This document shows, one piece after another, positions 1 through 3,387 of a DNA stretch of 64,000 nt. The stretch comes from a virus (Duplodnaviria; Caudoviricetes): positions 1,116 through 65,115 of IMG/VR virus record IMGVR_UViG_2879462666_000008; one strand, written 5' to 3'. Each line of letters begins with the position of its first letter. Within the stretch, counting starts at the first letter, position 1. The position numbers and the translations under genes are program-made. The notes under the pieces are model-generated. The model was given only the letters and a program-made list of their open reading frames with translations, was not told where the DNA came from and did not search any database.

Positions 1-1664
1 CGCCACGTATCCATATCGAATACATCGTCTAACTCCGCGATCTTCTGTTTCCGGAATGCCGCCGAAGTAAACATCGCTTTCATATCCGTTAGATCCCCGT
101 TACACACTTTCGCCGCATCACGCGTAAATTCCGACGTCTGGAACTTATCCTCGTCACCGTCCGATAGCAAGAAATCCGTAAGATACTCCGCAATCGCATC
201 GGCGGCTATCCGCTTATCGCTAACGTTATGGAGAACGGTCTGCAGTCCGAGATATGGCGCGTAGGCTGTATCCGCTAAATTAATATCAATAACGTCTTCC
301 GGCGCTAAGTGGTCACGGACCGCGTCTGCCATGCCGCGTTGATTACCTGCGCTATCCTTATTATGTTCGTCGATGAAATCCGGTATTACTGCGCCGATTC
401 CGTGCTTGCGCTTCGCCTCTACAACGAGATTGACTACGTGTTGATCCTTGCCCATACGCGGCGACCCGTTAACAGCGCGTGGCATATACAGTTTATCCGG
501 GCTGTTCGTCGGAATATGAACGCGATGCTCTACACCGCGATCCGTAGCCGTTCCCGCAAGTATTCCGCGCTCATCCAGGAACGCACGCGGCAGCTCGATC
601 TCTACGCGCCGATTTGACGTTAGGACTTCGGAAAACTCCGCTTGTAAATCCGCGGTCGGTAGCTGCGTTAATTTGCCGAGCTCATCTACGCTCATTATAT
701 TCGGAGCGATTTCGCGCACTTTCCATTCGCTAATTTCTGCGCGAGCCCTTACGTTAACCTTTACGCATTCCAGCCGATTGTCGCCCGCTAAACCTCCGTA
801 TGCGCTCGCTACTGACCGCGCCAACATCTCGCGCTTAATCGGATCGGCGGACGTTACGGCGCAGCGAATAGACGTTTTAAATACGGGTAGATTACGCTTA
901 TTCTTCGTCTGTGTAGATAGATCGCCATTAACGAGCAGCTCCGCGCGATCTGGATTAGGTAGCGACTTACGTTCGGACTTAATCGCTGGGCCTGCGCCAT
1001 GATATAGCGATTTCTCCACGCCAGCCATTACGTCCTCTATCAGCGTTTTGACTTCGTAGAAGATATGCGCGGCGCCCATCGCTAGTGTACGCATTAGCCG
1101 CATTGGATCAAATCCGGGTCGGTACGCGAGCCCTCCGCCTTCCCACGTTTCCCACGCATAGTCCGCGAGTTTCTTCCATTTAGAGCGCGATACAGTTTCC
1201 GTCCGGATAAACACGCTAACCGCTTCATCTGCGCTTAATTCGTTCGTTACCCCGAGTAATTCGCGGATCGGTGTCGTCTGCTCGTTATAGCGGAAGTCTA
1301 ACGAAAACATATCGTGGCGGCGGTATTTGAGCGCATATAAATCCGTATCGTCATCGTTCGGAAACGTAAAGTCGTCCGCGATTTCTAGCGTTGCCTTCCG
1401 CCATTGTTCGTGATTGCGGAATTTAACGCGGAAGGATTCGGCGAACTCGGCCGGCATAGCGCAATAAAACGTAATAGAGTCCGCAGCCATTTGCGTAATC
1501 CACCAAAAGTCCGGAGTCGGCTTCGTAACAATGCGATAACCTTCGCGACGTGGTTTAGTGCGTGCGGAGAATAGTTCGTAGAGTGAGCGTTGGAAGTTAC
1601 GGGATGCGGAGTTTAGCGCAGACACATGCGGGATGATTTTATAAACGGTGTACATGGCGCTCAC
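1..1664 (-). CDS. VirB4/VirD4/HerA-FtsK-superfamily P-loop ATPase (partial, runs off the window; absent from the ORF track)
   Basis: Manual translation from GTG 1664 (GTGA overlap with upstream stop) or ATG 1655 is open to base 1: MYTVYKIIPH...LAGDNRL...RAVNGSPRMGKDQ (Walker A-like, ~444-470)...GAVIPDFID...DVIDINLAD. Confidence 0.75.
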   Translation of the reverse strand, partial: MSAMYTVYKIIPHVSALNSASRNFQRSLYELFSARTKPRREGYRIVTKPTPDFWWITQMAADSITFYCAMPAEFAESFRVKFRNHEQWRKATLEIADDFTFPNDDDTDLYALKYRRHDMFSLDFRYNEQTTPIRELLGVTNELSADEAVSVFIRTETVSRSKWKKLADYAWETWEGGGLAYRPGFDPMRLMRTLAMGAAHIFYEVKTLIEDVMAGVEKSLYHGAGPAIKSERKSLPNPDRAELLVNGDLSTQTKNKRNLPVFKTSIRCAVTSADPIKREMLARSVASAYGGLAGDNRLECVKVNVRARAEISEWKVREIAPNIMSVDELGKLTQLPTADLQAEFSEVLTSNRRVEIELPRAFLDERGILAGTATDRGVEHRVHIPTNSPDKLYMPRAVNGSPRMGKDQHVVNLVVEAKRKHGIGAVIPDFIDEHNKDSAGNQRGMADAVRDHLAPEDVIDINLADTAYAPYLGLQTVLHNVSDKRIAADAIAEYLTDFLLSDGDEDKFQTSEFTRDAAKVCNGDLTDMKAMFTSAAFRKQKIAELDDVFDMDTW

Positions 1665-1876
1665 CACTTAAAACGCTTAATCATATTTACGCCGAGTGCG
1701 TCCGCCTTCTTACGCACATTGTTCGCTTTCTTGAGCGTCTTCTTAACGGACTTAATAGCGGCGGTCTTCTTCGCAGCCTTACGTTTCTTCTCCGCTTCCA
1801 TTGCGCGTACGGCGGCTTTTCGTTTAGCCTGAGCTTCTTTCTTTTGCTGCGGAACTCCCCGCTTAGTCACGCTCAT
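1661..1876 (-). CDS. Small Lys/Ala-rich basic protein
   Basis: GGAGG RBS then ATG 1876 (ATGA overlap); MSVTKRG...KKRKAAKKTAAIKSVKKTLKK. Confidence 0.7.
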   Translation of the reverse strand: MSVTKRGVPQQKKEAQAKRKAAVRAMEAEKKRKAAKKTAAIKSVKKTLKKANNVRKKADALGVNMIKRFKW

Positions 1877-2154
1877 GTTAACACCCTCCATATCACACCG
1901 ACCCAAAACGTTAGAAACATGCGCCCCATCCATTTACCGTTATTGCCGACGATCGGCGAGACCATCATTCCGAGCGCACATACGATAATACCGAACGTTA
2001 TAATTTCCGGAGAGTAAGCGTTTAATGCCGCGATGATTCCGGTCGCTGTCTCACCGAGAACGCGCGATATAAGTCCGGTTATTGTCTCCGTTATATTATC
2101 GATTACGCCACCGCCAATGTCCGGAAGTGCTGCGCCATTTATACGTATTATTAT
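1873..2154 (-). CDS. Small membrane protein with two C-terminal TM segments (pilin-like); probable ATA start
   Basis: Hydrophobic segments IITFGIIVCALGMMV and MFLTFWVGVIW; AGGAGG-8nt-ATA. Confidence 0.65.
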   Translation of the reverse strand: MIIRINGAALPDIGGGVIDNITETITGLISRVLGETATGIIAALNAYSPEIITFGIIVCALGMMVSPIVGNNGKWMGRMFLTFWVGVIWRVLT

Positions 2155-2166
2155 TGCGCCCACCTC

Positions 2167-2535
2167 CTATAACATCCGCAGCCAATTACGGATATCGACC
2201 GCATGGCGCACGATAATGTAACCGATGCTGCCGCCCATTAGAAACTCGATCGCCTTCGTACGGTTGCCGAACATCCATGTAATGCCAGCATATACGATGA
2301 TGCCGACGCAGAGCCAATCGGCGATCCCGAGTACCGTTGAGAACACCGTTACCCACGTTGCTGACCCGGCCGCTACTGACGATGCGAATACGGTTTTAGG
2401 AATCAACGCGAGGTGAACGGTGGCGGCCGTTTTAGTTAACGGAGTCGGTACGTGAGGTGCGGTTATCTTTGGCGTGATAATACCGGATTGGAATGCGCCC
2501 CATTCGAGCGCAACGGTTTTAGTCATACGTATCAT
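2167..2535 (-). CDS. TrbC/VirB2 pilin-like membrane protein
   Basis: Leader ending in VFA, then two TM helices (IADWLCVGIIVYAGITWMFG-NRTKA-IEFLMGGSIGYIIV), a VirB2-like pattern. Confidence 0.6.
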   Translation of the reverse strand: MIRMTKTVALEWGAFQSGIITPKITAPHVPTPLTKTAATVHLALIPKTVFASSVAAGSATWVTVFSTVLGIADWLCVGIIVYAGITWMFGNRTKAIEFLMGGSIGYIIVRHAVDIRNWLRML

Positions 2536-2589
2536 TCCTTTCGGATTGGATATACTAGGCGTAAATTTAACGCAAAGGAGTTGTTACTA

Positions 2590-2652
2590 ATGGCGTTTGT
2601 TATCGGATTAATCGTCGGCGGCACTATCGGAGCGATCACGCTTCTGTTTTAA
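2590..2652 (+). CDS. 20-aa hydrophobic peptide MAFVIGLIVGGTIGAITLLF
   Basis: AAGGAG RBS at 2575-2580, ATG 2590. Confidence 0.45.
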   Translation: MAFVIGLIVGGTIGAITLLF

Positions 2653-2796
2653 TTCAGCGGTCATCGCGGCGTATAATATCGCTTTTACAAATCCGCTAAA
2701 GTTATCGCTGCCCCTATCCGTAGCCCATTCGAGTATCTTGCGTTGGTGTTTGTTGTCGACGTTGAAATTAACGCCCTTGCGTACGTACTTACTCAC
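2608..2796 (-). CDS. Ribbon-helix-helix-like small DNA-binding protein
   Basis: RKGVNFN beta-strand followed by two helices (NFSGFVKAIL). Confidence 0.55.
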   Translation of the reverse strand: MSKYVRKGVNFNVDNKHQRKILEWATDRGSDNFSGFVKAILYAAMTAELKQKRDRSDSAADD

Positions 2797-3115
2797 GATG
2801 ACTACCGTTTCCTATCGGACGCATAGTTACCGGTTGAGTATTCGTTTGATTCGGCGGACTGTCTTCGGGTTTTGATTCCGCTACTAGTGCGGCTGTCTTC
2901 TTACGCTTCGAACGATCAACTTTCGGCGCTCCGCTGCGGCTCTTAATCTCCGCCGTCAACGTTTCAATCGCGCCAATTACTTCGAGTACTGCATCGTCAA
3001 CATCGTCTGCTTCCGTAATGCCTTGCGCAAAGTCTGCGATCATCTCAGCGAGTATACCGACGGATACTTCACCAGCCATACGTTTCAATAACGCTTTGTT
3101 TACTAACGCTGCCAC
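2789..3115 (-). CDS. Hypothetical protein, first gene of the ATPase operon
   Basis: AGGAGG RBS, GTG start, overlaps next gene. Confidence 0.7.
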   Translation of the reverse strand: MAALVNKALLKRMAGEVSVGILAEMIADFAQGITEADDVDDAVLEVIGAIETLTAEIKSRSGAPKVDRSKRKKTAALVAESKPEDSPPNQTNTQPVTMRPIGNGSHRE

Positions 3116-3146
3116 ATTACCGCCTCCTACGTTTTACGTATGTTTG

Positions 3147-3174
3147 ATGTTATGCGCAGTAGCTCGGTCTATAT
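3147..3174 (-). promoter_or_regulatory. SigE-like sporulation promoter candidate
   Basis: ATA-17nt-CATAACAT upstream of the operon's first RBS. Confidence 0.4.
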
Positions 3175-3278
3175 GTCGTCAAATTTTACGACATTTTTAC
3201 GGGTAGACAACGAAAAGGAGCGCAGGTCTCCACCGTCGCTCCCAAAGCGCGGATCGCGTAGGCGACCGCTTTACCCCT

Positions 3279-3308
3279 AGCGTATGACGGCGGGCTTGTA
3301 CGTTATTC
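3279..3308 (-). promoter_or_regulatory. SigE/SigG-like sporulation promoter candidate
   Basis: GAATA-17nt-CATACGCTA. Confidence 0.4.
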
Positions 3309-3387
3309 CTACATATGTATTATGTTATTGTTGTAATTTACCAGGCATGATAATATGAGGAAAACGGAGGCGCGGAGGTTGGTTGAG

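Follow-up and report, generated by a model that had tools for sequence, protein, structure and literature searches.

An SPP1-type cassette with a predicted VirB4-architecture ATPase and a pilin-like membrane protein in a Paenibacillus-type prophage

Why does a prophage carry, downstream of its lysis genes, a large ATPase gene preceded by a run of small genes, two of which encode hairpin membrane proteins? The question is raised by the left end of a 64,000-nucleotide stretch of viral DNA (the window), which comprises bases 1116-65115 of the 65115-base provirus record IMGVR_UViG_2879462666_000008 and represents a prophage of a Paenibacillus-type spore-former. The open reading frame (ORF) list shows six minus-strand ORFs here that overlap or almost touch, encoding proteins of 108, 62, 122, 96 and 71 amino acids followed by an ATPase whose gene leaves the window. 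A first reading of the DNA (the original prediction) had taken them for a minimal DNA-transfer-like operon behind sporulation-type promoters. All six tightly coupled genes are indeed present, and our analysis identifies them as a type-IV-secretion-derived minimal membrane module of tailed phages and phage-plasmids of endospore-forming Firmicutes, with a VirB2/VirB3-like and VirB4-like core, a wall hydrolase in some versions, and without the parts that select or pump DNA. The related loci compared with the window cassette are numbered L001-L036, L001 being the provirus record itself.

The ATPase gene occupies positions 1-1667 of the window on the minus strand (ORF 3-1667), which hold its first 555 codons. 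The expectation of a protein longer than 550 amino acids that carries GSPRMGKD and runs out of the window proved correct: read left of base 1, the record gives a complete gene of 812 amino acids (L001:344-2782) that ends 772 bases left of window base 1. We built an AlphaFold model of the protein on 52 relatives, with a mean predicted local distance difference test score (pLDDT) of 88.0. Foldseek with the full model placed R388 TrwK/VirB4 chains at ranks 1-11 (best E 3.1e-13), followed by HerA, DndH-C and TrwB. The N-terminal domain (residues 1-350), modelled alone at a pLDDT of 91.9, gave 13 matches at E <= 0.001; among the matches listed, 11 of 11 were TrwK/VirB4, and the next row stood at E 0.021. 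In VIA-align the same domain superposed on residues 34-424 of TrwK/VirB4 with Z 16.9 (root-mean-square deviation 3.4, 242 residues aligned), the five R388 entries scoring Z 15.3-16.9 and the next fold Z 9.5. The C-terminal domain (about residues 350-790) aligned with Thermoanaerobacter VirB4 (4ag5) at Z 25.6 (root-mean-square deviation 3.8, 337 residues aligned).

Taken alone, the modelled C-terminal domain places the ATPase only in the FtsK-HerA superfamily, where VirB4 (25.6) ties with DndH-C (25.2), TrwB (25.1) and HerA (23.8). Because the N-terminal domain matches VirB4 while the C-terminal domain ties, the predicted structure has the two-domain architecture that separates VirB4 from coupling proteins, FtsK and HerA. 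Motors of the HerA, DndH-C, TrwB/VirD4 and FtsK types share a C-terminal RecA-like domain that aligns with that of the window ATPase (Z 18-25) but lack its VirB4-type N-terminal domain; also unlike these motors, the window protein is not accompanied by a nuclease, Sir2 or DNA-modification partner and lacks transmembrane segments. The description of a VirB4-like ATPase therefore holds for both domains of the predicted structure, by Foldseek as well as by VIA-align.

The ATPase belongs to phrog_5156 (E 3.8e-102), a family to which no function is assigned. A search of a large protein collection returned 88 relatives, the named ones from Paenibacillus, Cohnella, Neobacillus, Collibacillus, Alicyclobacillaceae and Desulfotomaculum. 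Its Walker A motif, GSPRMGKD, lies at residues 401-408 (window 445-468) and its Walker B motif, LVLNEPHQ, at residues 653-661, left of the window. G406, K407, D408, N657 and E658 are invariant across the 52 aligned relatives, giving family-wide deviant motifs (Walker A GxxxxGKD, Walker B hhhhNEP(H/E)Q) whose GKD and NEP also occur in the copies of SPP1, SP-10, B. cereus and Alicyclobacillus phages. The acidic residue appears to have moved from Walker B to Walker A. In a Desulfotomaculum locus (L013:7962-10408) the ATPase gene is split into ORFs of 632 and 186 amino acids by one in-frame TGA or a frameshift, and a second contig of the same genome holds C-terminal ATPase fragments only.

One of the small membrane proteins encoded upstream of the ATPase points towards type IV secretion as well. 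The 122-amino-acid protein (2167-2535, minus strand) matches Pfam PF04956 (TrbC/VirB2) at E 3.2e-5 over profile positions 11-97 of 98, and 9 of its 11 close relatives match that model at E <= 0.01. A profile search of 1.84 billion representatives showed its family to be small, with 124 members; when 125 sequences were scanned with Pfam, 49 matched PF04956 at E <= 0.01 (best 4.4e-8), 10 matched PF18895 (T4SS_pilin), and every other Pfam family had at most one match. In our alignment (A3) the protein begins with a leader-like sequence and has an Ala-rich segment following a stretch of weak hydrophobicity. A long hydrophobic helix (61-91) is joined by the loop GNRTKA to a second helix, and the helix at the C-terminus is strongly conserved. 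The PF04956 matches, in the query, its close relatives and its wider family, support the earlier description of a VirB2/TrbC-like protein, and the alignment agrees with its two transmembrane segments and leader. Its sequence does not tell a pilin from a VirB3-like anchor, as certain of its features also fit VirB3 as described in the relevant passages of a 2025 review of type IV secretion systems (PMC12857230).

We asked how widely this gene arrangement is kept, using our own hidden Markov models (HMMs) to scan the gene order of 31 loci. The order RHH-like (ribbon-helix-helix-like), pilin-like, hairpin, ATPase was found in 23 of them, of which 12 had been used in model training, 4 were duplicates and 7 were independent (L018, L022, L023, L025-L028). 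Three further loci (MMB025, SP-10 and L032) hold the pilin-like and ATPase genes only, L030 holds the pilin-like and hairpin genes only, and the remaining 4 of the 31 are fragments. The genes had been proposed to form one operon-like unit, and as a cassette of conserved order they do.

The same four core genes stand in the same order after the lysis genes in phage SPP1 (genes 31, 31.1, 31.2 and 32) and also in Geobacillus phage GBK2. By tblastn the ATPase is 29% identical to SPP1 gp32 over residues 6-793, or 97% of its length (E 6e-89). The 122-amino-acid protein is 41% identical to gp31.1 (E 4e-20; leave-one-out HMM 6.6e-22), and the 62-amino-acid protein matches gp31 (BLASTP E 1e-5; leave-one-out HMM E 6.2e-11). 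The 96-amino-acid protein sits in the slot of gp31.2 and shares with it an M-x-(R/K)ING start and a C-terminal hairpin; its match to gp31.2 is marginal with the leave-one-out HMM (E 0.0077) and absent with BLASTP, while the leave-one-out hairpin HMM finds two B. cereus copies at about 1e-6. On these sequence comparisons the SPP1 gene 31-32 cassette can securely be recognised here, in a version carried by a Paenibacillus-type prophage. The window copy, unlike that of SPP1, belongs to a temperate phage integrated as a prophage, has a promoter region to itself beyond a terminator and includes two extra genes, for the 108-amino-acid and the basic 71-amino-acid proteins. On a B. cereus plasmid (pAH187_45), a 216-base stretch inside a small hypothetical gene (L016:457-672) carries the PLSDB label 'SIM beta-lactamase' (rgi); it is far too short for a beta-lactamase, and the label looks like an annotation artefact.

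In their passages on these genes, Godinho et al. (2018, PMC6316719) describe gp32 as non-essential and its C-terminus as similar to TrwB, VirB4 and FtsK by HHpred, note that gp31.1 and gp31.2 carry transmembrane segments, and suggest a translocon with gp32. For SPP1, then, a phage translocon made of these gene products has already been proposed in print; those passages give the C-terminal likeness of gp32 only, not the VirB4-type N-terminal domain or the TrbC match. The literature searched, supplements aside, yielded no functional study of gp31.1, gp31.2 or gp32; within it the terms gp31.1 and gp31.2 occurred in PMC6316719 only, and in passages of a preprint (10.1101/2025.10.26.684598) both VirB4 and SPP1 are named, but in unrelated contexts. 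What the window adds is not a new kind of system; it is a clean copy from a temperate phage, with a regulatory region to itself.

The third core component, the 96-amino-acid hairpin protein (1873-2163, minus strand), starts 3 nt past the stop of the 122-amino-acid gene. It combines an N-terminal M-x-x-RING motif with a C-terminal two-helix hairpin (alignment A4). In the homologues of L008 and L011 an M23 peptidase domain (Pfam E 1.9e-24) is inserted between the RING start and the hairpin; long forms of the protein also occur in L023-L026 and L028, and in MMB025 and a more distant Paenibacillaceae clade (L034-L036) an M23 gene lies just before the ATPase gene. A search of the hairpin family against PDB sequences gave nothing significant, and hhalign of the two small membrane-protein families returned a probability of 2.4%, which lends no support to paralogy.

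Upstream of the membrane proteins lies the gene for the 62-amino-acid protein (2608-2796, minus strand), which overlaps the 108-amino-acid gene by 8 nt. The original prediction had called its product RHH-like. The gene is there, and a strand-helix-helix (beta-alpha-alpha) pattern can be read by eye in alignment A6; a match to an RHH family model is what the claim lacks, as no such Pfam model hit the protein or 12 of its 13 relatives. One distant relative matches CopG_antitoxin (E 0.0068). Other leads are an NCBIfam match of the window protein to Tn5252_Orf10 (E 0.032, far below cut-off), a best named Protein Atlas lead of RHH_1 at 0.85, below the reliability line of the Atlas, and the depositors' annotation of the homologue in phage Sam46 as CopG/Arc/MetJ. 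The RHH-like family had no significant match among PDB sequences.

The remaining two genes are more variable. The 108-amino-acid gene (2789-3115, minus strand) is the first of the unit, with a GTG start at 3115, and its family fills the same slot in L005, L006, L007, L010, L011, L012, L018, L022 and L027; we found neither a family nor a Protein Atlas lead for the protein. In five distinct loci this slot, directly before the RHH-like gene, is taken by an actin-like protein; it is so filled in L008, L009, L023, L028 and phage MMB025. Genes for actin-like proteins (ALP_N/ParM-type) lie at L008:5403-6215, L009:6048-6842, L023:1195-2013, L028:3769-4590, L036:11898-12761 and L004:1785-2604, with Pfam ALP_N matches at E 1e-21 to 1e-25 in L008 and L009 and matches to our own HMM in L023, L028, L036 and MMB025. 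The basic 71-amino-acid gene (1661-1876, minus strand) begins at an internal start at 1876 within ORF 1661-1933, in an ATGA overlap, and encodes a protein of isoelectric point 11.5 with 25 K+R against 4 D+E. We found no family for it; elsewhere, comparable short basic ORFs with the ending ...GLKW were confined to L009 (46 amino acids) and L023 (39 amino acids), and in most loci the gap between the hairpin and ATPase genes is at most 16 nt. The basic protein is an accessory outside the conserved core.

We then considered whether such a cassette could transfer DNA. In the systems known so far, DNA is not pumped by VirB4. Across the 65115-base provirus record there were no matches to the relaxases PF13814, PF03432 and PF02486, to the VirD4-type coupling protein PF02534 or to FtsK/SpoIIIE PF01580, while positive controls in named genomes worked. 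The original prediction had suggested looking for a relaxase left of base 1, where, besides the ATPase C-terminus, the record has 343 bases left of the ATPase gene that hold just a 125-amino-acid plus-strand ORF at the record end and no relaxase, coupling or FtsK gene. Lacking both a relaxase and a coupling protein, the cassette is unable to carry out conjugation-type DNA transfer on its own, and the claim of a DNA-transfer-like system was not upheld.

What the cassette does share with type IV secretion cores (TrwL/TrwM/TrwK of R388; MPF-FA of Firmicutes) is the predicted two-domain VirB4 fold, a TrbC/VirB2-type small protein, small two-helix genes directly upstream of the ATPase gene and, in part of the cassette family, association with a wall hydrolase. 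The passages of PMC12857230 on Firmicute systems describe small VirB3-type genes encoding two transmembrane segments, often two such genes, directly upstream of virB4, and regard VirB2-like pilins as exceptional in single-membrane bacteria; its main text does not contain the word 'phage'. The cassette differs from these cores in its missing VirD4 and relaxase matches, in an ATPase that has no Pfam VirB4 match and whose Walker A ends in D and Walker B starts with N, in a hydrolase of M23 type with a C-terminal anchor, and in being carried by a tailed phage.

The best explanation of these results, which we consider probable, is an SPP1-type cassette of VirB4 architecture whose motor assembles or energises a small wall-crossing structure; the mechanistic part of it we infer. 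The 812-amino-acid protein would be a VirB4-type motor that probably forms a ring on the inner side of the membrane and acts on the pair of small hairpin membrane proteins whose genes immediately precede its own. It would pull the TrbC/VirB2-like subunit out of the membrane and build it into a short wall-crossing fibre or conduit, with the second hairpin protein as a wall-side partner. In sister phages the M23 endopeptidase on the hairpin protein may open peptidoglycan locally, as VirB1-type hydrolases do in Gram-positive secretion systems. The RHH-like protein could be the cassette's own DNA-binding regulator or a DNA adaptor, and the 108-amino-acid and basic 71-amino-acid proteins variable accessories.

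Several results weigh against a secretion-type motor and pilin, and with the C-terminal tie given above they should be read together. The only Pfam match of the ATPase at E <= 1 was DUF7857 (E 0.047), with no VirB4-type model among the results; NCBIfam gave nothing relevant, PDB sequences gave nothing significant (the profile of 52 relatives had 0 matches at E <= 10), and a precomputed Pfam domain is absent in 87 of the 88 relatives. The canonical motifs, GxxxxGK[ST] for Walker A and hhhhDE for Walker B, are absent from the ATPase and from every member examined, and with the motifs deviant throughout ATPase activity is assumed. The PF04956 score of the 122-amino-acid protein, 24.5 bits, lies under the curated cut-off of 27.9; 76 of the 125 family sequences are without a TrbC match at E <= 0.01, and against PDB sequences the family profile reached VirB2 at E 2.9 and 5.8 only. 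There is no signal peptide in the M23 domain or the N-terminus of the hairpin protein, which leaves their presumed outside location unexplained. None of the six ORFs is polytopic by reading, and VirB6 and VirB8 were not recognised in the operon, although no family search for them was run. The text of PMC6316719 on these genes, finally, reports them as dispensable for SPP1 in the laboratory.

Among the alternatives, the one that survives best ties the cassette to sporulation: expressed from a SigE-type promoter, it would form a channel or anchor that brings phage DNA or proteins from the mother cell to the forespore, or holds spore-trapped phage DNA. We think this unlikely. The SigE-like motif behind the sporulation-type promoter claim, ATA-17-CATAACAT, is present at 3174-3147 on the minus strand and suitably spaced from the first gene, with 32 nt between it and the GTG at 3115. 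Of 7 Paenibacillaceae loci, 5 share without change the -10-like box CATAACAT and the 24 nt that lead from it to the ribosome-binding site, whereas the sequence diverges farther upstream. The claim that this is a sporulation-type promoter is not supported. The ATA is kept in only 3 of the 7 loci, the strict form CATACAnT does not occur, and the pattern ATA-16/18-CATAnnnT is short, low in information and common by chance: 13 copies lie on the two strands of the window, where 40 dinucleotide shuffles gave 6.6 +/- 2.6. Since CATAACAT is unique in the window, no phage-sigma regulon can be defined. The conserved CATAACAT block is real, and it may equally be an operator or a leader rather than a promoter. 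Moreover, the homologous genes 31-32 of lytic SPP1 belong, according to the transcription passages of PMC6316719, to an early unit with promoter PE5 in vegetative infection.

Other elements crowd the same spot, which further weakens a SigE assignment. A sigma-A-like candidate, TTGTCT-16-TAAAAT (3183-3210, minus strand), agrees with the consensus at 9 of 12 positions, in a region where sigma-A-like sites are not enriched (5 against 6.8 +/- 2.5 expected), and its -10 lies inside a 22-bp imperfect palindrome (3175-3196) that abuts the putative -35 of the SigE-like motif. An exact second copy of the palindrome, followed by a T-run, lies at 52829-52850 between the convergent ends of a primase gene (52850-53815, minus strand) and a helix-turn-helix gene (52565-52807, plus strand); two exact copies compare with 0.00 expected in 100 shuffles, and a shared operator and a terminator-like hairpin are both candidates for its role. 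A resemblance of its half-sites to a Spo0A box, at 6 of 7 positions by eye, was not used, a 7-mer with one mismatch being far too common to count. The prophage does encode a sigma-70-family sigma factor of 221 amino acids (61577-62242, minus strand; phrog_351, E 1.4e-32), which favours the sporulation link in that it has a weak SigB/F/G affinity: it scores 67 bits against the NCBIfam sigma70-ECF superfamily and 48 bits, far below cut-off, against the SigB/F/G subfamily. A 205-amino-acid protein (51791-52408, minus strand) has a faint match to extracytoplasmic-function-type sigma factors (E 1e-4).

The distribution of the cassette is another argument for a link to sporulation. ATPase matches occur in 105 phage records (Bacillus 93, Geobacillus 5, Lysinibacillus 2, 'Deep-sea' 2, Alicyclobacillus 1, Brevibacillus 1, Microcystis 1) and 43 plasmid records (Clostridium 22, Bacillus 20, Alicyclobacillus 1), all from endospore-forming genera save the one Microcystis record. 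Among 401 genomes of the class, SpoIVA is present in 20 of the 21 with an ATPase match against 272 overall (Fisher p 0.0026, phylogeny ignored) and in 12 of 12 with strong matches (p 0.0088, likewise with phylogeny ignored). The single exception and several others of the 21 are weak partial matches, maybe other ATPases, and the association test is a weak one, spore-formers making up 68% of the genomes sampled. Of 201 Paenibacillus-family genomes, 11 had a match, 5 of them strong and full-length. This near-confinement to phages and plasmids of endospore-formers is suggestive and keeps the sporulation link open; the actin-like DNA-segregation protein before the RHH-like gene in sister loci also counts in its favour. 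The missing relaxase, coupling protein and FtsK stand on the other side. A fuller version, in which a secretion-derived channel or anchor works during host sporulation from a mother-cell-type or phage-sigma promoter, together with the segregation pair of sister phages, and moves phage DNA or proteins into the forespore, seems to us slightly less likely again. If true, delivery to the forespore would explain the near-restriction of the cassette to viruses and plasmids of endospore-formers.

The position of the cassette in the prophage bears on the next alternative. Nearly all provirus genes are on the minus strand; leftwards from the integrase at the right end of the window (63011-64000) come the sigma factor, helicase, primase, DNA polymerase, terminase, portal and tape-measure genes and an M15 endolysin (4337-5110). 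The lysis unit is closed by a strong terminator of 20 pairs (3832-3788), and one plus-strand gene separates it from the cassette, so that the location downstream of the lysis genes given by the original prediction was right. The last gene of the lysis unit (3845-4048, minus strand) encodes 67 amino acids with one membrane helix and a zinc-ribbon-like CxxC...CxxC tail, and the plus-strand gene (3355-3777) a membrane protein of 140 amino acids without a family.

The cassette is flanked by the lysis genes and the prophage end and has, past a terminator, a promoter region to itself, a placement typical of accessory genes, and in most related provirus loci the ATPase gene likewise ends within about 400 nt of the record end. 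This would suit superinfection exclusion or early host takeover, in which a membrane complex blocks the entry of rival phage DNA or alters the envelope and has no transport substrate of its own. The cassette of SPP1 is early and dispensable, and superinfection exclusion is among the roles that its authors list for early dispensable genes in the corresponding passage (PMC6316719). A conserved two-domain motor of 800 amino acids, a pilin-like subunit and a wall hydrolase, however, far exceed what known exclusion proteins need. PADLOC assigned no defence family to the 8 proteins tested, the ATPase included, and the cassette is retained in strictly lytic large phages such as SP-10; we judge this explanation improbable.

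A role in DNA positioning appears more improbable still. The RHH-like protein would bind phage DNA and, with the actin-like filament in sister loci or the 108-amino-acid protein in the window, dock it at the membrane complex for replication or segregation, and the ATPase would serve as anchor or remodeller instead of secretion motor. The RHH-like gene does lie within the conserved core, many carriers are plasmid-prophages, and in L008, L009, L023, L028, L036 and MMB025 the actin-like gene directly precedes it. Yet the window cassette has no actin-like gene, the pilin-like and M23 parts would be left without a role, and integrated prophages and lytic phages carry the cassette too. Finally, a defence or DNA-repair ATPase of HerA/DndH type, with the small membrane proteins as holin-like lysis accessories, would fit the C-terminal Z scores with DndH-C and HerA and the size, hydrophobic helices and position near the lysis genes of the small proteins, but can hardly be entertained given an N-terminal domain that matches VirB4 only, no defence family from PADLOC, a lysis unit with its own terminator, and small genes that keep their order with the ATPase where the cassette is away from lysis genes, as in MMB025.

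The SPP1-type cassette of VirB4 architecture thus remains our preferred reading. Bacillus, Paenibacillus, Geobacillus and Clostridium have more than 100 sequenced phages and phage-plasmids, the model phage SPP1 among them, that keep a conjugation-type motor with a pilin-like partner. The function of the cassette could reveal a new phage use of secretion machinery, the candidates being fibres that cross the wall, the exclusion of rivals, the anchoring of DNA and entry into spores, and SPP1 in B. subtilis provides a route to a direct genetic test of the cassette.

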